A stretch of 62,660 nucleotides of DNA, counting the filler, from Thelocarpon superellum (Eukaryota): assembly GCA_026025795.1 (NCBI GenBank). It is 5 parts of 5 records of this genome, joined end to end, with 100 filler letters (N's around TTAATTAATTAA, not from the genome) between each part and the next. Parts side by side here need not be neighbours in the genome. Positions count along the whole stretch, not along the records: positions 37,728 to 50,148 come from JAPEUG010000485.1; 4 more parts are not named here. One strand, 5' to 3'. Below are positions 38,318 through 59,920 of the stretch, in pieces. A program made the position numbers and the translations under genes. Each line of letters starts with the position of its first letter. Position 1 is the first letter of the stretch. The notes beneath the pieces were generated by a model, which made no database searches, had not been told where the DNA came from, and saw only the letters and a program-made list of their open reading frames with translations.

Positions 38318-41300
38318 ATGTTCATCAACGTCTTGTTGAGGGAGCACCCGCACCGGGCCATCGCTCTGGTGACCGAGACCCACGCCCTGATCTTTCGGCA
38401 CAGTCCATCCACGGTCGAGTCGGCGGCCAATGGCTCCATCGCGGCCGTCTCGCTGGCGCTGGCGCCGGCCCCGGCTCAGGGAGCGGCCGTGGTGGAGCCA
38501 CGATGCATCGCCGAGTTCAGCGGTCTTGATGCGGTGGACTTGAGCGACTACCGCCCGCTATCCCTGATTCCGGTGCAAGGCACTTTGGGCTTGATCACGG
38601 TCAACGGCGACGTCTTTCTGTGTGTCGTCAGCGGAGCTTCGAGAGTGGCCACCGTGCGCCCAGGAGAGACGGTGCAGCGGATCAATGCGGTCGAGTTTTG
38701 TGAGCGAGGCATGTCCGTCGGCCGATCAAGCATGGCTGACGAGGGCAAATAGACTGCCTGAACAGCGCAGAGTATGACCAAGTCGCGGTGGATGAGTTCA
38801 ACTACTACCCGGCCGAGGAGGCGTCACGAGAAGGGGTGGAGCATCCGTGTCTTCCACTGCGGAAGTTGCTCGCAGGCGGCACCTTCTACTACAGCACCGA
38901 CTTTGACTTGACCAACCGCTTGCAGGACCGGTCCGCCGAGAACGCCATCTTCGATATTGACAACCTCGACGAGAGCTTCCTGTGGAACTCGTACATGATC
39001 GGCCCCCTGGTCAAGTTCCGCGCACACCTCTCGGGGCCAGAGCGGGATGCCCTCGATGCCTCCCAGATCCTGACGTCGGCCATCCGGGGCTTTGCCATGA
39101 CAATCACGGTGCCTTCGTCGACCGCCCCAATCCCGGCGTCGCGGGCCGGTCTGCCGAGCATGTTGACCGTCATCTCCCGATTGTCATGCCGACGGGCGGG
39201 CACACGATTCAACGCGCGTGGGATCGACGACGATGGAAACGTGGCCAACTTCGTCGAGACCGAGACGGTGTACTGGTCGCCGGCCGGCGTCTGCTTCTCC
39301 TACGCACAGATCCGGGGGTCGGTCCCGGTGTTCTGGGAGCAGGCGACGGGACTCCTGCCGGGTCAGCAGAAGATCTCCATCACCAGATCTCCCGAGGCCA
39401 CCCAGCCGGCGTTTGACAAGCACTTTGCGGGACTAGAGGTTGAATACGGCGCTGTCCACGTCTTGAATCTCCTGAGCGAGTCGAAACCGGGCGAGGCAGA
39501 GCTCACTGAACGCTATCGCCGGCACGTTCGCGCTAGCCCGTTGAACCGTGCGGCAGAGCAGCGGACGTCGCCCGATCACCAGCTCCTGAAGCAGACCGAC
39601 TACGACTTTCATGCGGAGACGCGTGGACCGGGCGGCTATGAAGCCGCCGGACTGGTGCGGAACTTGATCGAGCCCGCCGCCCGCGGCTTTGCCTACTACA
39701 TGGAGCAAGGCGACGGTCCGCCGTCGGCACCGACCCGAGGACCCAGTGCTCCCCATCAACGTCCGGTGGCCGTTTTGCAGCAGGAGGGTGTCTTTCGGAC
39801 CAACTGCCTGGACTGCCTCGATCGGACAAACCTGATCCAGACCATCATCTCGCAGATGGCCCTCGAGCTCTTCCTCGGACACGTGGGAAAGCGGGCGTCG
39901 GCCGACTTCTTAATGAGGCATAACACCTTGTGGGCCGACAATGGCGACGCCTTGTCGAAGATCTACGCCGGCACGGGCGCGCTCAAATCCTCCTTCACCC
40001 GCCACGGGAAGCTTTCCTTGGCGGGGGCGCTCGCCGATGCGCGAAAGAGCGCCACTCGCATGTACATCAACAACTTTGCCGACAAGGGCCGGCAGAACAC
40101 CATGGACATGTTACTCGGGCGCCTGATGGGCCAAGCGTCCGTGCACCTGTACGACCCGATCAATGATTTCGTCACGGCTGAGTTGAGCAAGAGATCTGCC
40201 GAGTACTCTGCCTCGCGAACCATCCGGATCTGGGCCGGCACGTTTAATCTCAACGGGCGCGCGACGGGGTTGGGTGAAGATCTGTCACCATGGCTCTGTC
40301 CCGAGATTGAAAAGGCCCAGCGAGATCCCGAGATCGTGGCCGCAGGATTCCAGGAGATTGTTGAGCTCAGCCCGCAGCAGATCATGTCGACGGATCCGGG
40401 AATCCGACAGGCATGGGACACGGCGGTGAAGCGGACGTTGAATGAAGACGCCCAGCGACGTGGGGCCGAACGCTATGTTCTGCTGCGGAGCGGACAGCTC
40501 GTCGGGGCGGCGCTCTCCATCTTCGTCAAAGAGACGGTGCTCGCGGACATCAAGAACGTGGAGGGGAGCGTGAAGAAGACGGGCCTGTCTGGGATGGCGG
40601 GCAATAAAGGGGCGGTGGCGATTCGGATGGACTACGCCAACACGCGGATCTGCTTCATCACGGCCCACCTGGCGGCGGGCTTCGCCAACTACGAGGAACG
40701 CAACCGCGACTACCAAACGATCAGCCATGGGCTGCGGTTTCAGCGGAACCGGTCGATCGAGGACCACGACACCGTCATCTGGCTGGGGGACTTCAACTAC
40801 CGCATCGGCTTGGGCGATGAGAAAGTGCGGCGTCTGATCCAGACGAGGGACCTCGACACCCTCTACGAGAATGACCAGCTGAATCTACAGATGGTGGCGG
40901 GTTTGACCTTTCCCTACTACTCCGAGGCACGAATCACATTCGCGCCAACGTACAAGTACGATAATGGAAGCGACTCATATGATACCTCGGAGAAGTCACG
41001 CATCCCCGCATGGTGTGACCGGATCCTCCGCAAAGGGACGAACCTCCGACAATTGAGCTACAACACGGCGCCGCTGCGCTTCTCCGATCATCGACCCGTC
41101 TACGCGACGTTTCAATGCGCGGTCAGTGTCATCAACGAGGGCGTCAAGGCAAAGCTGAGTCGCCAGATCTACGACCGTCGCCGAGATGAGATCAAAGGTG
41201 CCACGGCGAACGACCCGACGGATGAGACGGACGACGAGGACCTCATCGGCTATGACGCCATCAGTCCCGCTCTCCCACCCGCGAGCTCTGATCGACGTAA

Positions 41301-42264
41301 ATGGTGGCTGGACAACGGTCTTCCCGTCCGCTCGGAGGTCAAGCCACCGACCGGGCAACTGACGGCGAATCCGCATCGACCTTCCAACCCCTTTGGCCCC
41401 ACGCACGAGGCCGACTGGGTACACGCTTCCAACGGACTCCCATACCAGGGCCGACCCAAACAGACAGGGCCGCCCCAAGGTGCACCACCAACCAACGGAA
41501 CTCGGCGGAGGATTGCGCCACCACCACCGCCGCCACCACTCACCGCATCATCGACGGGCCCCCGCCTCTCATCCAACCCACATCCCCTCGAGGAGCGCCC
41601 GGCACCACCCCCGCGGCCCCTCGCCCACAGCAGCACGGGGCCCCTCTCACCCACCAGAGACTCGTCACGAAAGTCTCGGCCCCCAGTTCCCCGAAAACCC
41701 GTCCGCTTGAGCTCAGACGGGGACACGGAGGACAAACAGCGCCGAAGCGGCAACAGTCCCGACTCATCCCGTGTCGTCTCGTCCGCTGCATCTCCCGTAT
41801 CCGCTTCCGCTTCCGCTTCCGCTTCCGCTTCCGCTTCCGCTTCCGCATCCTCACATGCACACGCAGCTGCGCCTACCTTGCCCCCTGCTCCGCGCCGATC
41901 CATCAGCTCATCCCACCGCACCGTTCCACCTGCTTCAACGACGACAACTATCCAGACGACGGCTCAGGCGCACACGCTGCGTAAACCGCGACGACCGGAC
42001 CCGCCGGGACCCGTCTTACCGCCTCGCACGACGTCTATTTCGACGCCTTATGATACGTCCCCACTGGCCACGACGAGATTGGGAGAACCGACGATACCGG
42101 TCAAAGCAGAAGCAGCAGGAGGCGGTGATGGTGGTGGTGGTGCGGGAAGAGTAGGGGGAGGATGGGGAGGAGGGGGAGGAGGTAAAGAACCCATCGACCT
42201 GATGGACGATGTTGATTCCGCTTCTGGATCTCTTGGTTCTTGGATGCCCCTAAGACCTGCTTGA
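38318..42264 (+). CDS. Synaptojanin-like phosphoinositide phosphatase (Sac1 domain + 5-phosphatase + Pro-rich tail; Inp52/Inp53 type)
   Basis: RAGTRFNARGIDDDGNVANFVETE, RTNCLDCLDRTN (Sac1 CX5R), GNKGAV, WLGDFNYRI, PAWCDRIL, SDHRPV. One intron at about 38700-38751. Confidence 0.95.
41803..41850 (+). repeat. (GCTTCC)7 coding repeat giving poly-(Ala-Ser) in the synaptojanin tail
   Basis: Read directly from the sequence. Confidence 0.9.
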
Positions 42265-42551: not shown

Positions 42552-43328
42552 TCAGCGATAGTATTCACGCCGTCGTCCGTGCTCATCGAATACCACCACG
42601 CGTTCTCTCGTCTTCTCTCGCTTCAAGTCCCCTTTGTTCCGCGCGTCCTCGGGTGCATCTCCTCGCTCCCCTCCCGCTGCCATTGCTTCGGCGCCGTTCT
42701 CGCCCATTCCAGGGACGTCGTCTCGTAAGGACATTGTGATGGTGACGTTGCTGGATCGGCTCCCGGCCACGCTGGTGCTGGACCCGTATCGCTGATGTCT
42801 CGCACGGCGGGGCGCGGACGTCGCGGTGATGGTGGAGTAGATGATGCTGCCGCCGTCGCCGTCTGCGTCCGACGCATGCGGGTGGTGGTGCACAGAAGCA
42901 CGGCAGACGCTCGGGATGGAGGTGTTGCTGGCGCTGACTCCTCGGGGTCTCTTTCGGCTCCCTTCTCTCTGTATCGTATGTGGTGATGAGGTCGGGCGTG
43001 GTGGGGAAGCAGGTGGAGTCAGGACCTGTATTGTCGGCATCGGCGTGGATTGAGGGGGTGCCGCAGCGCTCGGTATGTCTCCAGCCACAACCCGCTCGTT
43101 CGCTTCGGGGACGACACTTCGAGTCGGTAGCGGGGCGACGGGGAGAGGGATGGAGGCCCCAATTGGCGTGCCGCTGGGAGACAGGACCCGTTCGGTAGCA
43201 TTCGGCTGAGAGGCAGAGGCGGAGGCCGATGCTCGCGACGAATTGCGTTGAGCCGGCTCGAGGGGGACGATGCGGTTCGCGACCACCGGCTCTTCTTCAC
43301 GAGCCGGGCGGACGCGGATGAAGCACAT
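42552..43328 (-). CDS. Hypothetical protein (258 aa), disordered
   Basis: ATG in good context (TAAATG). Distinctive termini MCFIRV..EEEPVV and RERVVVFDEHGRRREYYR*. Confidence 0.6.
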   Translation of the reverse strand: MCFIRVRPAREEEPVVANRIVPLEPAQRNSSRASASASASQPNATERVLSPSGTPIGASIPLPVAPLPTRSVVPEANERVVAGDIPSAAAPPQSTPMPTIQVLTPPASPPRPTSSPHTIQREGSRKRPRGVSASNTSIPSVCRASVHHHPHASDADGDGGSIIYSTITATSAPRRARHQRYGSSTSVAGSRSSNVTITMSLRDDVPGMGENGAEAMAAGGERGDAPEDARNKGDLKREKTRERVVVFDEHGRRREYYR

Positions 43329-43913
43329 TTATCATCCCTTCGTCCGTCCTCCGCCTGAGGCCTGTGGATCCGGAGAGGTGATTGAGCGGTGGGAGCGGGG
43401 GCAGGGTCAGCTACCGAAGCTTCATCGGCAGTGCCGTGTTGAGGAATCCTAACAGAACGTCAAAGCAGACGAGATGCCATCAATCGCTCAAGTCCCTATC
43501 TCGATCATGATGGAGAGAGCAACGGAGCGAAGGCCGCTGCGAGATTGTCTCCCGTCGTGGTGGGGGCGGTGATTGACTCTGTTGCGTGCTTTTGCTACCA
43601 TCCCGAATGAGAAGAGCTCGGGGAGCTTGGCGATTAGAAAAGTCATGTGATGCTGCCACGATAAATGGCTGGTGCACACAATCCCGCTTGCCGAAGCATC
43701 CTCGCCGTGTTTTGCGAGTCATGGCTGTCATTGGTCCGCTGCTCGAATGCCTTCGATAGAGTATGTCAGTCCATAGTTGAATGACTGACGGCCAAGCGCC
43801 AACGCAGCGAGCATAGCCTCGCCGTGGGGTAGCATTCAAGCCATGGCCACACCCCGAACCCCAAGGGCCCAGCACCCTAAACATCAGCGACGGTCGTTGG
43901 CAAGGAGCTGGTG

Positions 43914-46856
43914 ATGACGATGGCTCATGGCATGAGCAACACTGGGTACTCGGGCAGAACGGATCTCGGCAATGGGCTCATCGTCCAAGGTTCCCAGAAC
44001 GCGGGCGGAAACATCACCTTCAGTAACTCTTACCTTTTGCTCAAGAGATTTGGGGCGTTCGTGTCTGATATTGAAGGGTAGACTACAACACCAACCGGGA
44101 TCGAGAAGACGAGGTTCTCGATGGTGTCTCTCTTTGAACTTCACGCAACGCCAAGTCGATATCTTCAATGATCACGAGCCCGCAACGGGGGACTGGTTCT
44201 TGCAAGATGAGAAGTTCCGTCGATGGCGAGATGGACAAGGAGAGCGGATGTTGTGGTGTCCGGGCATGCCAGGCGCAGGCAGACGATCATGACCTCACTC
44301 GCCGGCGACCATTTGAGAAAGCATTTCCCGCTGGACAAGGTTGCCATTGCCTTTATCTACTGCGACTACAACGCGGCAGATCGGACCGCGACGAACCTGA
44401 TCGCCAGCCTCTTGAAGCAACTAGCTCAGCAAGCTTCCCTTCAAGAGAGGCGCCTGCCGGATCAGATCGCAACGATGTACGAGACCCACTTGAAGATGAA
44501 AACTTGGCCAAATATGCAAGAATCTCTCCGCGGGTTGCGTCATGTCGTTGATTTCTTCGAACAGGCATTCTTCATCGTGGATGCTTTGGATGAGTGTCGA
44601 ACCCAGGAAGGCGTCCGAGCGTCCCTGATTCGGGCCATCATCGAGCTCTCTGCCGACATCAACGTGATGGTCACATCGCGGATGGGAAGCGCGGACATCG
44701 AGCAGGAGCTTGCGTCCCATCCGACCCTCGAGATCTATGCGCAGAGCGATGATATCCGACGTTATCTTGACGCCCACATTGAAGAGGGCGGCTCTGCCCT
44801 GGCCGAGATTGCCTATGAAGATGCGGGATTTCGGAAAGAAATGTTGGACACGTTGATACGAAACTCTCAAGGAATGTGAGTTTCAATGCGAATGTGACTG
44901 GAATGCTCCATGTTAACCCCGGCCCTAGGTGCCTTCTGCCTCGACTCCACCTCGATGCCCTCGCCCAAGAGTACAGCAAAGCCGAGATCCGCAAGGCGTT
45001 GAAATCGCTACCAAGGGACATCATCACACGTTACGAGATGACTTTCCAACGGATTCAAGACCAACGGCAAGGCTTCCGATTGGCCCGTGACGTGTTAACC
45101 TGGGTCTGCTTCGCGGCACGGCAGCTGACTATGGAAGAGTTGCGCCATGCACTCGCGACCCGTGCTGGATCGGTGACTCTGGATACGGAAGCGTTGCCTC
45201 GGCCCCGCTCTATCCGCTCTCTCTGCATTGGACTGGTCACTGCGAAGAGAAAAGCCAGCTGGTCCGATTTGTTCACGAGACAACTCCGTCATTCTTCCGC
45301 GAGAGCCACCCTTATCTCCTTCCCGCCTTGCATTGACATGTCTCATGTACCTTTCGCAAGATGCCTTCGCCTCTGAGCCATGTTCAGACCCCAAAACACC
45401 GAGAGCTCAGGTAAAGCGATACCCATTCTTCAATCATGCCTCGAACCACTGGGATATCCTTGTTCGCGAGAGCGCAGCGCACGACGCTGAAGGTCCAAAT
45501 CCGCAATTTCTGAGAACCGGGCCAAAAGTATCATTTTCCATCAAAGTAAAGAATCGCTCAAGCCTGTTTGGATCGATGATCCCCACATTCCCTCAGTCTG
45601 CGTTGCAGCTTGCTGCACGCTTTGGCTTCCCAAAAACAATCAAGGTGCTTCTGCGCGGCGAGCGAGATGCCACAGAAGATGTCAATGCGACTGACAGGAT
45701 TGGCGAGACAGCGCTGCTGAAGGCATCAAGAAATGGTTACTTGGAGGTCGGTGGTGTGCTGCTGAGCGCTGGCGCAGCGGTTGATAGGAGCTCATATCAT
45801 TTGACCGCACTAAATGCCGCTGCCGAAGGAGGCCACGTTGACGTGGTTGAGGCACTGCTAGCTGCTGGTGCAGCTTTAGAGAAAGCTGATATACGGGAGC
45901 GGACCCCACTGCATTGGGCAGCGATTCGTGGCCACGTGAAGGTCGTGGAAAAGCTGCTGGCTGCTGGGGCGGCGGTTGATGCGACCAACCAAGATGGGGA
46001 TAACGCGCTGCATGGAGTAGCCTTCGCCGCGAACGTGGAGATTATGGGTAGGCTAATAGACGCTGGGGCAGCTGTGGATGTGTTCGATGGAAGAGGGAGG
46101 ACTCCGCTCCATATCGCAGTGCACACAAAGGTCGCCGAGGCGGTAACACGCCTGTTGGAGACGGGAGCAACGATTAATCTGGCTGATGCAGATAGACGGA
46201 CGCCGCTGCACGGCGCAGTCAGCGGTGGAGTTGAGGAATCGGTGAAGGCGCTTCTCAAGGGAGGGGCAGCCATTGATGCAGTCGATCCGGACAAAGAGAC
46301 CGCTCTTTACAAGGCAGTGGCTTACGAACGATTTAACATGCCTCTGATCCTGCTAGAGGCTGGGGCAGCTCCAGATGTGGCTGAAGGACACGGGTACACT
46401 GCGCTGATGTCGGCCACTCACTCCAGGAAGAGCCCAACGTGGGTGATGGCGAGGCTGCTAGATGCCGGGGCAGACGTGAACATGGCTAGTGATGAGGGAC
46501 TGACGTCGCTACACTCGGCAGCGAAGGGGGGCAATCCCGAGAAAGTGAAGGTGCTGCTCGCTCGAGGGGCCAACGGTCCAGCGCCTCGCTCGGACGGTTA
46601 CACGGCACTCCATCTGGCTACAGTGAGCGGGAGCGAGCAGGTTGGGAGGCAGCTAATGGTCGCTGGGGCGGATGTCGACAGAAGAGATGGATCTGGCGAG
46701 ACGGCTGACCAGATTGGTGCGAGACCGGGCCGCCACGATCTGGCGAGGGTTCTGCAGCAGGCCTCGAAAACATCCAAGCGACGCGCGGGGGGATCGAAGC
46801 CGGAAGCCAGGCAGAAGGCGCGGGTGAAACGAGACGACCTGCCGACGGAACACTGA
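43914..46856 (+). pseudogene. Fungal NLR (short N-terminal motif - NACHT - winged helix - about 11 ankyrin repeats) with about 4 frameshifts
   Basis: LNFTQRQVDIF..TGDWFL..WCPGMPGAG/(K)TIMTS (Walker A broken at about 44281), FFIVDALDEC (Walker B), LTWVCFAARQLTMEELRHAL, LVRFVHET, CLMYLS, YPFFNHASNHW, then repeated TPLHxA..G..LLxAGAxVD. Introns 44023-44081 and 44876-44928. Shifts near 44122, 44281, 45245 and 45320. Confidence 0.88.
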
Positions 46857-47774: not shown

Positions 47775-49594
47775 TCACATGACACGACAGACAATGTCGT
47801 GCGGAGCGGACGCTTCAGGTTTTTGGCTTACTTTTTTTGCCGGCCGTCCCCGAGTCCCGGCGGTCCACGCTAACATCGACGGTAACTTGGGTGGTGGCGC
47901 CTTTTTCCCCGGATGGAGTACCACGACTCCGGCCGCCCCAGCGGGAGCACCAGGGGCCGGCGGTGGCGGTGGTGGCACCGCGCCGTGGCCTTTGGCTGCG
48001 GCCTTACCCGCCTGAGGCTTCGACGGGGCCGCGACGATGTTGGGGGGCCCCTTGGGAGTGACCAGAACCACTTGCTCGGGACCGTCGGGTTCGGGTGCCT
48101 TCCCCGCCTCCGGTTCCCCATCCTTCGCCGCCGGTGGGTCGGGAATAGGCCACATGTGCATGGTGATGGCCCAATCGGGTTCGATAATCGTCTCCCACAC
48201 CTGGGGCAAGATGATCTCGCCGTCAGGGCCAATCAGATCGTAGTGACCTTCGGCCACGTGCGGACCAATCACGTCGATATGGGCGAAGGCTTGCCGGATG
48301 AGATCTTCCATGCCCTATTGTCATCGTTAGCGCAGGCGAACCCCGACCGGGAGTGGAGCGAGGACATACCGCCCAAGTCTGGCAGAGGTGAAAAGGGAAA
48401 CTGAATTTCCTCCCGACCGCGTCCTTGAATTTGATCGGCTTCTTCTTCTCCTCCTTGGGTTTCGGGGCGGCGGCGGCTGCTTCCTTTGCCGCCGCGGCCT
48501 CTTTGGCGGCTGCCTCGTCATCCGCCTTCTTCTTGGCCGCGGCCTCCTCGGCAGCCTTCAGGTCGGCGGCCCTCTTCTCCTCCGCCTCCTTTCGCGCCCT
48601 GGCTTCCTTTTCTTCTGCCTCCCGCTTTTGATCCAGAAGGATCTTCTCGAGGCGTAGAAACTTTTCGTCGTCTTTGGACACGTCTGAGCGTGAAGGTGGG
48701 CGCGGTACGCCGGCCGGAGAAGGCATGACCTGGTAGTAAAGGGGTGGTGTCATTGGGCCGCCCACGCCATAGCCCGGGGGATGGTTGTAGTAGTAACCAC
48801 CACCCTGCCCGTAGGGCATCACGTCTTGCCCGCCGTAGTGCCCACGCCCGGCCATGGGATTGGCCATGGGCGCACCGTGCTGGCTTGGCGGAAAGTATCC
48901 CCCACCACCGGCGGCCGAGGAAGCATAGCCCTGCGGAGGGTATCCATAACCATTGTGGCCGGAGAAGGGAATCAATTGACTGGCGCCGCCGCCGACAACA
49001 CTCTCACCGGAGTAGGGGCTGTAGGCGGGAGCGGAGGTATAGCTAGGAGCGTAGCCAGCTGGGGGCCCCTCGCCAGCCCGCCACTGACTGTGCGATCGTG
49101 GGCGAGGCGGCGGCGGCGGGCCCCGGCCGTAGCCCGGATAGTCGTCGGCCGGGTCCACACTTTCGGGGGAGACCGGCACGGGCGGCCGATGCGCACGGGA
49201 CGGGGGTCGTTGGTGTAGGACACGCTCGCGGAGATCGTGGCGGCGTGAAGGCTGACGAATGGGCAGGCCACGCGGATCTCCTACCGGACGATGCTGGTTC
49301 GCGGTTCGTGGTCGAGAGGCCGAATCCGACGGTCCAATGTCATCCGGATACGCGTCGAGGACCCAGCCGTCGCTCTCGTCCAACGACTCGGCGTACTCGT
49401 GGCTGCCGACGCCGGAGGACGGAGAGACGTGGACACCGGTGTCTGAGGAGTCCTCTTCGTCCGAGTAGGAGTTGGAGGTGGAGCGCTCGGAATCGTTCCC
49501 GTGATGATCAATGGTAATGTTAATCCTGTCGGCAACCTCGTCAGCGATGCGTCACGACGTGCGCGGGTTTCGGGCGGTAAGTCACTCACGGCAT
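47775..49594 (-). CDS. Fungal protein with Pro/Gly/Tyr-rich region, coiled coil and ubiquitin-like domain (often annotated 'KAP-like')
   Basis: 5-nt first exon ATGCC, intron 49526-49589. KKPIKFKDAVGRKFSFPFHLCQTWA|GMEDLIRQAF..GHYDLIGPDGEIILPQVWETIIEPDWAITMHMWP. The 3' end is uncertain (possible extra intron at gtaagc near 47830). Confidence 0.8.
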
Positions 49595-56863: not shown

Positions 56864-59800
56864 TCATGAAGACATCTGTTGTGCCTGGCACAAGTCCCAC
56901 TACCGTCCCCGTCGTTCCAATAAGCTCGAGTGGCTCCCCTGCTCCACGACCCGACCGGCTTCCAGAACAAAGATCCGATCCGCCTCTCGGACGGTGGACA
57001 ATCAATGAGCAATGACGACGGTCGTTCGACCTTTCGACGCATGATCCAGCGCCTGCTGCACCACTCGTTCGCTCTCTGTATCGAGCGCGCTTGTCGCCTC
57101 GGCGAGCAGCAAGACCATCGGGTCGCGGAGAAGGGCACGCGCGATGGCGAGCCGTCGACTTTACCCGCCGCTCAGCGCGAGGCCGCGACTACCACATGGC
57201 GTGTCGTATCCGGCAGGCAGAGAAGTGACGAAGTCGTGGATGTTGCCGTCGCGACATGCTTGAATCATCCGAGACTCTAACGTGTCGTCGGGCACGCTGA
57301 ACATCACATTCTCACGAACGCTTCCGTGGAACAGCGTCCTGCGACACGAGACTGACCTACGCGTCGAGGTCAGAGGCGATGAACAGAGAACACACCAAGC
57401 AGGTCTAGACTCTCCGCCAGTCCGTAAAAGATCATCGTCAACGCCGTATGTCGATACAACTTCCGCACCGGCGGCCGGAGACGGTCCGCATACCGGGCCA
57501 GCACTTCCGACTGTATCCCAAGAGCAGAGACGGTCCGGATGGCGCCCACGGCTTCGGACGCGAAACGGGCGCTCTCCAAGTACTGTTTGGCCGTCACGTC
57601 CTCGCCATGCATCTCCAGCCGCATGCGGATGAAGCCGGCGAGGAAGACGGCGGGCAGACAGCCACACAGCGACACCAGAGTCAGTTTCCACGCGAAGATC
57701 AACGAGAGAACCGCACAGCCGATGAGATTCACGACGACGATGCCGATCATGCCCAAATTGACCGAGAGAAGATCTTGCAGGCTCTGGTTGTTCGTCGAGA
57801 GCTGGGCCGTCGACGCCCCAGTGGAGTGGCCCTCGGCGCCGAAGAAGAGAGATGTCTTGAGCCCAGATGGAGGAAAAGTACTCCTTGCGGTTGGAGTGGG
57901 AGGCCATGGAGCCGCAATAGTCAAGAAGTAGCCTATGCTTGCATAGGCCACCAACGTCGCCAAAGCGAGCATCAAGAACATGAGCGCCCAGAAAGCGATC
58001 CCTCGCTGCAGCGATGCACCGGTCGACTGAAAGAGGACCATGACGTCGGAAAAGAGGATGGCTTCGGCGGGAAAGACGCCGCCGGCACACTACCCCCAGG
58101 TCGCTCGCTGCTGCCGGAGCATATTCTAGGGGCATCGGAGCAAGAAGAGCTTTCGAGCAATGTCATGGGGCCCGACCTCTGGCAACGACGCTGTCGTCCA
58201 ACCAATCTCTTTCGTCTCACGGCCTAGGCCTTCTGAAGCGTCCTTGACGTCTTTCCCGCGTTCGAACTGGGGGCCCTCTCGATTCTGCGCCTGCACGAGT
58301 CAGGCGTAGGCCCCGGTAGCGGCAAGGAGGGTCTCGTGCGTTCCCTGCTCGACCACTCGCCCTTCCCCGATGACGACGACCTTGTCCGCGCGCCGAACTG
58401 TTGAGAGCCGATGCGCAATGATGATGGTCGTGCGCGACCGCATGATCTTCTTCAGCGCCAAGGTCGCTTCATCCAAGAGCAGGATCTTGGGATTCGCGAT
58501 GACGCTACGCGCAATGGCGATCCGCTGTCGCCCGCCGCCACTGAGCCTTCCGGCCCGCTCGCCGATCATGGTGTGATATCCCTCCGGCAATCGTTGGATG
58601 AAGTCGTCGGCGTCGGCTTCGATGCATGCCTGTCGGACCATTGTCATGTTCTCTTCCCATGCTTCCCCTGGACGAGCCGGAATCGTGCAGGCTGTAGACG
58701 ACATTCTGAAAGATCGTATCGTCGAAGAGCATCGGCTCCTGCTGGACAAAGCCCATCTGCCTCCGGAGCCATTCGACATTCGGATGTTTCACGTCGACGC
58801 CATCAAGGAAGACGTGGCCGTGGCTGGGATCGTACCACCGCTCCAGCAAGGACATGACGGTGCTCTTTCCACTTCGGCTGCCGCCCACCAGCGCGGTGAC
58901 CTGATTGGGTTCGAAGGTCAAGTGGGCATCGTGCAACACCTGGGAATCCGGACGAGCAGGAAAGCAAACGAGACATTCCGAAGCTCCAGCTTGCCCACAA
59001 GATGGGAGATCTGTCGCCCTCCTTGGTTGCTCACGGTATCAATTCGGGGCTCCTGAGTCATCATGGCGGGGACCTCGCGCGTTGCTACGGCTGCTCGGGA
59101 GTACTGGACGATGTAGGGAGCGATCATGGTGAGAGCAAAGGTGGCAATGACGACGGCAAACATGACGCTACCCCATCAGCTAGGCGGTCAATGGCAGATT
59201 GATACCTTTGGACGTGCGTGATAATAGCTCCACCGTCCGCAACTGCGCCGTCCCGGAGCAGATGCACCCCGAACCAGACCGTCAGCGCATAGGTGGCGAG
59301 CATGATGAAGAACTCGGCGCTGAATTGCAGCCCGGCCAAGGGACCCCTTCGGAAGGAAAGCTCTGAGGCTGGGCGAGGACGGCCTCGTATTTTCGGACGA
59401 GCTTGTCGTGTGCTTGGCAGGTCATGACCTTGCTGATGCTCGCGAGCGCCTCCTCCATGAAGCCACTGGCTTGGATGTAGAGCTCTTGAATCCGGCTATC
59501 GAGCCGAGCGTCCAGGGTGACGGTGATGCCGATGGCGAGCACAGCGAGCGGGATGGACGTCATGGCCACCAAGGCCAGCTTCCAGCTGCGGGAGAAGGAC
59601 GCAACGAGCATGGCCACGTCTTGCACGGTAATGCCGACCTTGTCCGCCATGCCGACCTGGATGAAACTCGCCTTGTTGGGAGACCCTGGCCGCAATGGCC
59701 CCCGACAAACACTGATCACAGTAAGACATGTCCTGCCGCAACGTCGCACGGATGTATTCCAGGCGCGGCGTCCGGGTTGTCCAGATGGCAGTGATGGGAA

Positions 59801-59920
59801 AGGCCGCGGTATGAAAGTAGACCAGCTATGAAGGGGTATCGGCGAGGCTGATTCGTGCATGGGCTTTCTCACTGCTTGGCTAGACGGGCCGTCCACCGCG
59901 TAGGTCTCGGTCATGTTCAT
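56864..59920 (-). pseudogene. Degenerate ABCB/MDR1-type multidrug transporter
   Basis: Fragments in shifting frames: [67 protein letters not shown] (SALD segment missing), TMD2 fragments, [14 protein letters not shown], a stop in GR*WDLCQAQ. NBD2 Walker A region is deleted. The 5' boundary is uncertain and may extend to about 60200. Confidence 0.88.

Follow-up and report, generated by a model that had tools for sequence, protein, structure and literature searches.

A candidate amyloid-signalling leader exon at the head of a decayed NACHT-ankyrin receptor gene of Thelocarpon superellum

Several families of amyloid signalling motifs have been described in fungal NOD-like receptors (NLRs). In PUASM, found in NLR32, the motif is defined as FxGxGxQxxGxGxF, a G-hydrophobic-Q-hydrophobic-G pattern is also given, and most copies lie at positions 20-49 of the protein (Wojciechowski et al. 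2022, PMC9815663). The same source defines the PP motif as NxGxQxGxN. The HRAM motif of the NWD2/HET-S system is described by a Gly at position 19, hydrophobic residues at 5, 8, 10, 16 and 18, Arg or Lys at 15, and Asn, Gln or His at 3 (Daskalov et al. 2015, PMC4518210). The BASS preprint reports that amyloid signalling motifs favour Q, N, G, V and I and are poor in K, P and L. The locus compared here with these systems lies in a 62.66 kb stretch of DNA (hereafter the window, 62,660 nucleotides including filler) from the Thelocarpon superellum assembly GCA_026025795.1. It is an NLR gene with NACHT and ankyrin domains, on the plus strand at 43914-46856, whose first exon would encode a short leader rich in Gly, Asn and Gln.

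The receptor is, with high confidence, a pseudogene. Tentatively, and at slightly less than an even chance, the most likely reading of the locus is the relic of an amyloid-motif-type NLR of a Thelocarpon-type fungus. In such an ancestor, about 40 G/N/Q-rich, beta-arch-like residues (exon 1 and the first five codons of exon 2) would have led directly into the pre-NACHT helix, with the NACHT NTPase, the winged helix and the ankyrin repeats behind it. If the receptor worked like those of the NWD2/HET-S, PUASM, PP and sigma systems, a ligand bound by the ankyrin repeats would have triggered oligomerisation through the NACHT domain, the gathered N-terminal motifs would have formed an amyloid template, and this template would have converted a matching motif on a separately encoded effector. 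Today, with four single bases lost and the Walker A Lys codon destroyed, at most a 54-residue peptide could be expected from the first ATG.

Leader peptide and amyloid motif families

The gene model comprises three exons and two introns, listed here with the part of the leader that comes closest to a described motif.

43914..44022, plus strand: exon 1, candidate amyloid-signalling leader, 36 codons and the first base of a split Asn codon
43977..44021, plus strand: PUASM-like core, residues L22-F36, resembling FxGxGxQxxGxGxF after a one-residue deletion
44023..44081, plus strand: predicted intron 1, 59 nt, GTAACT ... CTGAT ... TAG, phase 1
44082..44875, plus strand: exon 2, with the NYNTN continuation, the pre-NACHT helix and NACHT/NPHP3_N (~44185-44681); two -1 shifts inside
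44876..44928, plus strand: intron 2, 53 nt, GTGAGT ... TTAAC ... TAG
44929..46856, plus strand: exon 3, with a winged helix (~45062-45247), a linker, ankyrin repeats (at least 45690-46619) and the stop at 46854-46856

The frame opened by the ATG at 43914 encodes MTMAHGMSNTGYSGRTDLGNGLIVQGSQNAGGNITF and runs to 44021/22. The 30 residues that begin at its third Met include 13 Gly, Asn or Gln (four of them Asn), two charged residues, and neither Pro nor Lys. Nowhere else in the window, whichever of the six frames is read, does a stop-free stretch of 30 residues combine a G+N+Q count of at least 13 with at least four Asn, and none of 11,940 peptide windows taken within open reading frames (ORFs) of at least 300 codons does so. 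The composition and beta-arch layout of the leader agree with the general description of amyloid signalling motifs, and the pattern core occupies residues 22-36, starting at residue 22. The initial annotation had inferred that this G/N/Q-rich pattern fits the amyloid-motif class; composition and position are in line with what PMC9815663 and the BASS preprint describe. If the exon is real, the proposal that it encodes an ancestral amyloid-signalling motif is evenly balanced. A self-assembly prediction with four copies of the peptide scored 0.02, which is no answer and is counted neither way.

A series of results weighs against this proposal, and the comparison with named families is the first of them. 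The best placement of each of five patterns on the peptide was scored, with 2000 shuffled versions of the peptide and 36-mers drawn at random from 797 short six-frame segments as controls; P values are uncorrected across ten tests. Ungapped, none of the five patterns rises above chance: PUASM reaches four of seven fixed positions (P 0.63 against shuffles), HRAM five of eight (P 0.58) and PP two of five. When a one-residue deletion is allowed, PUASM reaches six of seven between L22 and I34, with P 0.004 against background ORFs and P 0.044 against shuffles, the latter lacking correction for the ten tests. PP gains four of five with one insertion (P 0.19 against shuffles), HRAM does no better than chance with one indel, and the G-hydrophobic-Q-hydrophobic-G pattern (P 0.70) and the RHIM-type core (P 0.45) are likewise at chance level. 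The peptide has no Pfam match at E <= 10 in a collection that includes models for HET-s (PF11558), PP (PF17046) and NACHT_sigma (PF17106), as named in PMC12261475; the negative for PF17106, the model of the ~40-residue sigma motif, at E <= 10 is to be read knowing that HMMER filters may lose weak matches. Judged from its sequence, the leader is thus amyloid-motif-like and nearest to PUASM, but it cannot be shown to belong to any named family. The initial annotation could not place it either. Of the families against which it had proposed to score the peptide, HRAM, PP and PUASM are not matched by their patterns as written, nor is the RHIM core, and Pfam, sigma included, returns nothing at E <= 10.

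The second set of adverse results concerns relatives. A word-index search of 5.8 billion protein clusters with a 40-residue reference gave 26 candidates, none of which scored. Among 1.84 billion representative proteins, phmmer with the 36-mer found no true relative; its sole match (P0054), a tandem-repeat protein of 766 residues in which no stretch aligned, was rejected as spurious. Scanning the JGI metagenomes with the 66-residue stop-to-stop frame yielded at least 597 pattern matches, one of which passed tblastn among the matches listed. This one (L001) lies on a contig of 43% GC, shares one 9-residue word and meets a same-frame stop four codons later; it was set aside as a chance match, and no relative beyond it was found among the matches listed. 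The best ESM Atlas value, 0.82, is at chance level, and nothing was found among PDB sequences at E <= 10. In databases of this kind a 36-residue query detects close relatives only, and distant motif kin may remain. Beyond near-identical alleles, no copies of the leader were seen.

The nearest homologues of the NACHT part, 53 in number, share at most 40% identity with it. In 45 of them the N-terminal domain is long and the P-loop lies at least 160 residues from the start, three have no recognisable P-loop, and five have short or truncated N-termini; no leader-like sequence was found in any of the 53, these five included. PF01048 (PNP_UDP) is listed for 11 of the 53. Since no relative was recovered from any database searched, conservation among homologous NLRs is not shown. 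Absence of such conservation, which the initial annotation had named as an argument against its own proposal, is what the searches return as far as they reach.

Nor is a partner visible nearby. Translated in all six frames, the window yields no second copy of the peptide, the best non-self BLAST match being at E 6.5, and no HeLo, HeLo-like, SesA/B, PNP_UDP, patatin or HET domain was found in 23-62.66 kb, a span of -21/+18.7 kb around the leader. From 23 kb on there are 166 ORFs of at least 100 codons, of which 121 and a further 14 were scanned with Pfam. Of those outside this set, four are plus-strand frames of the NLR itself, three of which an earlier domain scan had covered; the remainder share sequence with the synaptojanin-like gene or with an ORF at 42552-43328, or run antisense to the NLR, except for a few ORFs near 22.7, 43.0-43.98 and 49 kb, two of which were scanned. 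The families recovered were GHMP kinase, AAA ATPase, DUF7608, a NuA4 subunit, the synaptojanin-type phosphatase, ULD_2, ABC transporter and fungal transcription factor. An Arg-rich minus-strand frame at 52640-52490 contains a look-alike (G-N-G-Q-L-I-R-V-G-S, compared with G-N-G-L-I-V-Q-G-S in the leader); it shows neither a coding signal nor a domain nor a BLAST match, and the likeness was rejected as chance. The initial annotation had seen no partner effector on the contig, and indeed no matching motif was found in the window and no effector-type domain in 23-62.66 kb; its further concern, that no effector would carry the motif, describes the situation within the span searched.

Most short NLR N-termini carry no assigned function, and the alternative that survives best, though unlikely, is that exon 1 is genuine and encodes a leader that is short, disordered and of low complexity and plays no part in amyloid formation or templating. 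The base rate favours it and weighs against an amyloid role: amyloid-like motifs occur in only 17% of short fungal NLR N-termini, leaving 83% without one (PMC9815663). It would also account for a leader with no ungapped pattern, Pfam match, partner in the window or relatives. Against it stand the Gly-flanked hydrophobic triplets, the G-x-Q-x-x-G core and the lack of Pro, Lys and Glu, a composition and layout that are specific to amyloid signalling motifs and not to generic disorder.

Exon 1 and the 5' end of the receptor

Whether the leader belongs to the receptor at all depends on the first splice. Just upstream of the ATG there is an in-frame stop at 43878-43880. Intron 1 carries a CTGAT branch-like site 14 nt ahead of its terminal TAG (44079-81), and its GC content is 44%, against 57% for exon 1 and the upstream DNA. 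Its removal brings exon 1 into phase with N-Y-N-T-N-R-D-R-E-D-E-V-L-D. The frame of exon 2 is closed just short of 44082, by a stop at ~44073-44078, and contains no ATG, which means that an upstream exon is required; the 43914 frame is the sole ATG-initiated frame able to join the pre-NACHT helix in phase. The proposed splice is further supported by the Asn-rich character, which persists past the junction (NYNTN). The leader exon then sits ~63 codons ahead of the P-loop. Exon 1 is therefore probably spliced as proposed, and the GT..AG intron of the initial annotation is plausible, with splice-type signals, a lower GC content and a phase that joins exon 2. Its description of a separate short exon at the head of a NACHT-ankyrin NLR holds for frame, phase and composition and fails in one respect, the NLR not being an intact gene.

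Other properties of the exon are uninformative. The GC content at its third codon positions (GC3) is 0.75, a value reached by 17% of the 274 small ATG-initiated ORFs of the window, and GC3 was dropped as a coding test because it does not discriminate. The length of the open frame is nothing unusual. Exon 1 shows no base differences in the X2 and X3 contigs (described below), which was rejected as a distinguishing mark, other 150-nt stretches of the pseudogene also showing zero or one. An alternative acceptor at 44113, in phase and avoiding the first frame shift, was rejected as well: it is not the first AG past the branch site, it loses the VLD codons that match the homologues, and it would leave the Walker A shift unrescued.

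The rest of the receptor is readily recognised. Pfam NPHP3_N/NACHT (PF24883) is found on two frame segments (E 8.5e-18 and 4.8e-9) split at 44280/81, followed by a GPIID_WHD winged helix (PF22939) and an ankyrin array with Ank_2 (PF12796, E 3.1e-65), Ank, Ank_4 and Ank_5. At the conserved G-M / LL.RLHLD junction, intron 2 interrupts the Met codon, and tblastn segments pick up again behind it at 44933 in the expected frame. Exon 3 contains two -1 shifts within its first 400 nt, and its final 1.5 kb is open. The locus thus has the nucleotide-binding domain and the C-terminal superstructure-forming repeats of a fungal NACHT NLR (a STAND NTPase); an intact Walker A motif, GxxxxGK[ST], and a continuous frame are lacking. 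An alternative allele in the X1 data, 44931 G>T, replaces Cys by Phe in the first full codon of exon 3 and yields the G-M-F-L-L consensus common in such NLRs.

Upstream of the leader no trace of a larger domain was found. None of the eight plus-strand ORFs of 42841-44026 matches a Pfam family, and the ten ORFs of both strands give a single match, on the minus strand and at chance level (E 0.21). With six of the nearest homologues as queries, tblastn finds nothing upstream of 44065; the 1.6 kb upstream of exon 1 holds no remnant of an N-terminal domain, and no Pfam domain lies between the synaptojanin-like gene (38740-42264) and the ATG at 43914. The earlier statement that there is no room for an N-terminal effector domain is borne out by these empty scans, and the locus shows the layout of NLR-associated amyloid motifs as a generic class, a motif of 20-40 residues in a short N-terminus with no globular effector domain.

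These data also bear on a second alternative, somewhat less probable than a non-amyloid leader, in which exon 1 is non-coding. Rearrangement would have deprived the relic of its true 5' end, an effector-domain exon, and the ATG...GT/AG series found there would be fortuitous. The gene was already decaying, with four frameshifts, and most of its nearest homologues (45 of 53) have long N-terminal domains; GC3 is uninformative, and the donor of intron 1, GTAACT, is sub-optimal, with no usual G at +5, a point that also counts against the amyloid reading. A chance ORF would nevertheless have to present, at exactly this spot, a composition unique in 62.66 kb. Moreover, the phase, the branch site and the lower GC content suit a real intron, the exon-2 frame needs an upstream exon, and the 1.6 kb upstream retains nothing of the domain supposedly lost.

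Frameshifts along the receptor

The coding sequence of the NLR changes frame four times, always by -1:

44119..44126 (near 44122), plus strand: frame shift 1, past the EVLD codons and ahead of the conserved Trp in the pre-NACHT helix
44278..44285 (base lost at 44281-82), plus strand: frame shift 2, in the Walker A Lys codon
45236..45245 (near 45240, approximate), plus strand: frame shift 3, ahead of the conserved LVRFVHETT segment
45305..45325 (near 45315, approximate), plus strand: frame shift 4, ahead of LALTCLMYLSQDAF

At the first shift the homologues have (R/K)VL(D/N)W, and in the locus VLD and W fall in successive frames. The second separates G-M-P-G-A-G in one frame from T-I-M-T-S in the next, with a stop in the old frame at 44290-92, and no GT-AG interval is able to skip the Walker A site. 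The third and fourth bound a 25-codon homologous stretch (...LVRFVHETTPSFFRE...) in a third frame. None of the reconstructed segments contains an in-frame stop. After splicing, 54 codons are open from the first ATG, covering the motif and 18 further residues. The initial annotation had not reported these four shifts, one of them in the Walker A Lys codon; it had placed the pre-NACHT helix nearly directly after intron 1, where the helix is indeed found, and the EVLD..LNF series quoted for it crosses the first shift.

Short-read contigs from two studies reproduce the shifts: X1 from one, and X2 and X3, at low depth, from a second study of moss metagenomes. An X1 contig covering 43968-44522 at ~148x spans the first two shifts gap-free; its three base differences from the window mark an allele distinct from the window's. 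Another X1 contig (45083-45287) spans the third shift, an X3 contig (44209-44359) the second, and an X2 contig (45166-45515, 11 base differences) the third and fourth, all gap-free. The second to fourth shifts are accordingly present in both studies. The first is spanned by the X1 allele only, because the X4 contig stops 5 nt beyond it. Elsewhere in the window, ORFs of 1323 and 1174 codons are intact, which, together with the gap-free contigs, argues that the frameshifts are not assembly errors. Among the 26 coding differences in the list of allelic differences, which leaves out 23 further ones, 10 are synonymous and 16 non-synonymous; the neutral expectation is 29% synonymous, and the result points to relaxed constraint. 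As the frameshifts are common to several alleles, the receptor is no working signalling module today.

Decay is uneven along the gene: the ankyrin part (45321-46856, plus strand) is open for ~1.5 kb, whereas the four -1 shifts fall in the gene's first 1.4 kb. An ankyrin-only product from an internal start may be one explanation. Separately, the X1 data contain two forms of 43700-45460: alternative contigs at partial depth (for example 36/111, 104/163 and 68/166) carry clustered substitutions and, within intron 2 behind 44925, one inserted T. The sample may thus contain two haplotypes or strains. The moss-metagenome alleles of the locus are ~98% identical.

Two further readings assign the locus a present-day role. 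In the first, the leader would belong to an unnamed, distantly PUASM-like amyloid-motif family of Thelocarpales-type lichen-associated ascomycetes, with an unlinked effector that the 54-codon remnant, if it persists after the receptor's decay as a peptide of its own, may still seed or dampen, which we consider quite improbable. The second, that the NLR is functional and its four shifts are assembly artefacts or are bypassed at expression, is the least credible of all: the uniform -1 direction, the stop-free reconstructed segments and the open last 1.5 kb speak for it, and it is opposed by gap-free short-read contigs at every site spanned (X1 at ~148x, X2 and X3 at low depth), intact long ORFs elsewhere, a Walker A site that no GT-AG interval can skip, near-neutral allelic substitutions and the fact that four programmed +1 shifts in one fungal gene are, to our knowledge, unprecedented.

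Genomic context and comparison with known systems

Upstream of the NLR, on the plus strand at 38740-42264, lies a synaptojanin-type inositol 5-phosphatase (Syja_N and Exo_endo_phos2) of 1174 open codons. Over 76% of its length it matches, at 100% identity, a protein whose label assigns it to a metagenome-assembled genome of Thelocarpon superellum, the next best match being T. impressellum at 77%. Downstream, on the minus strand at 47778-49551, a ULD_2 ubiquitin-like domain is split by an intron into two ORFs (PF22893 positions 2-27 and 28-84); ahead of it come a long low-complexity region rich in Gly, Tyr, Pro and Gln and a stretch rich in Lys, Glu and Ala. Further on, at 57373-59920 (minus strand), an ABC transporter appears in ORF pieces (ABC_membrane, ABC_tran twice, ABC_membrane), presumably separated by introns.

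The order Thelocarpales belongs to the leotiomyceta clade of the Pezizomycotina, within which its placement is uncertain. In one full-text literature search, none of the titles listed dealt with amyloid signalling in lichen fungi. Should the leader prove to be a true amyloid motif, this signalling mode would reach into a little-studied lichen-associated lineage, with a sequence outside current pattern definitions, and the locus would document the decay of such receptors. The kind of system is well known and this instance is dead, and the claim of a new motif draws on composition and on one weak gapped pattern match. Being a single orphan sequence on a pseudogene, and lacking a partner in the window, the leader gives no direct experimental access to a long-standing question. 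There are also lessons for annotation: short first exons of NLRs are easily overlooked, and frame-shifted NLRs may seem intact when read domain by domain.

Compared with NWD2/HET-S and its HRAM motif, the locus is alike in placing the candidate motif just before the NACHT domain, with no effector domain, and in the Gly-flanked hydrophobic strands of the leader. It is unlike this system in that five of eight positions agree, as expected by chance, PF11558 finds no match, and no HeLo or HeLo-like gene is adjacent. Like the PP motif (PNT1/HELLP; RHIM-like), the leader lies close to the start of a NACHT NLR and has a G-x-Q core surrounded by G/N-rich sequence, whereas NxGxQxGxN agrees at two of five positions ungapped, the RHIM-type core is at chance and PF17046 is not matched.

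NACHT-ankyrin NLRs with integrated effectors, from Monosporascus, Apiospora and Thermothielavioides (P0002, P0006 and P0009), have the same NPHP3_N/NACHT-GPIID_WHD-ankyrin architecture and are 34-40% identical to the locus over the NACHT domain. Unlike the frameshifted locus with its 36-codon leader, they carry N-terminal regions of 160-430 residues.

The closest described system is PUASM/NLR32 (PMC9815663). The leader departs from it in matching four of seven positions ungapped, six of seven requiring a one-residue deletion with one Gly replaced by Val, and the window contains neither a PNP_UDP (PF01048) gene nor a matching C-terminal motif. The two are alike in lying ~20-35 residues into the N-terminal part of a NACHT NLR and in having a G-x-Q-x-x-G core with hydrophobic flanks. 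Both the leader and the published NLR-side peptide (PMC9815663) contain G-N-I-T followed by a hydrophobic residue, and the closest NACHT relatives of the locus often carry an integrated N-terminal PNP_UDP domain (11 of 53).

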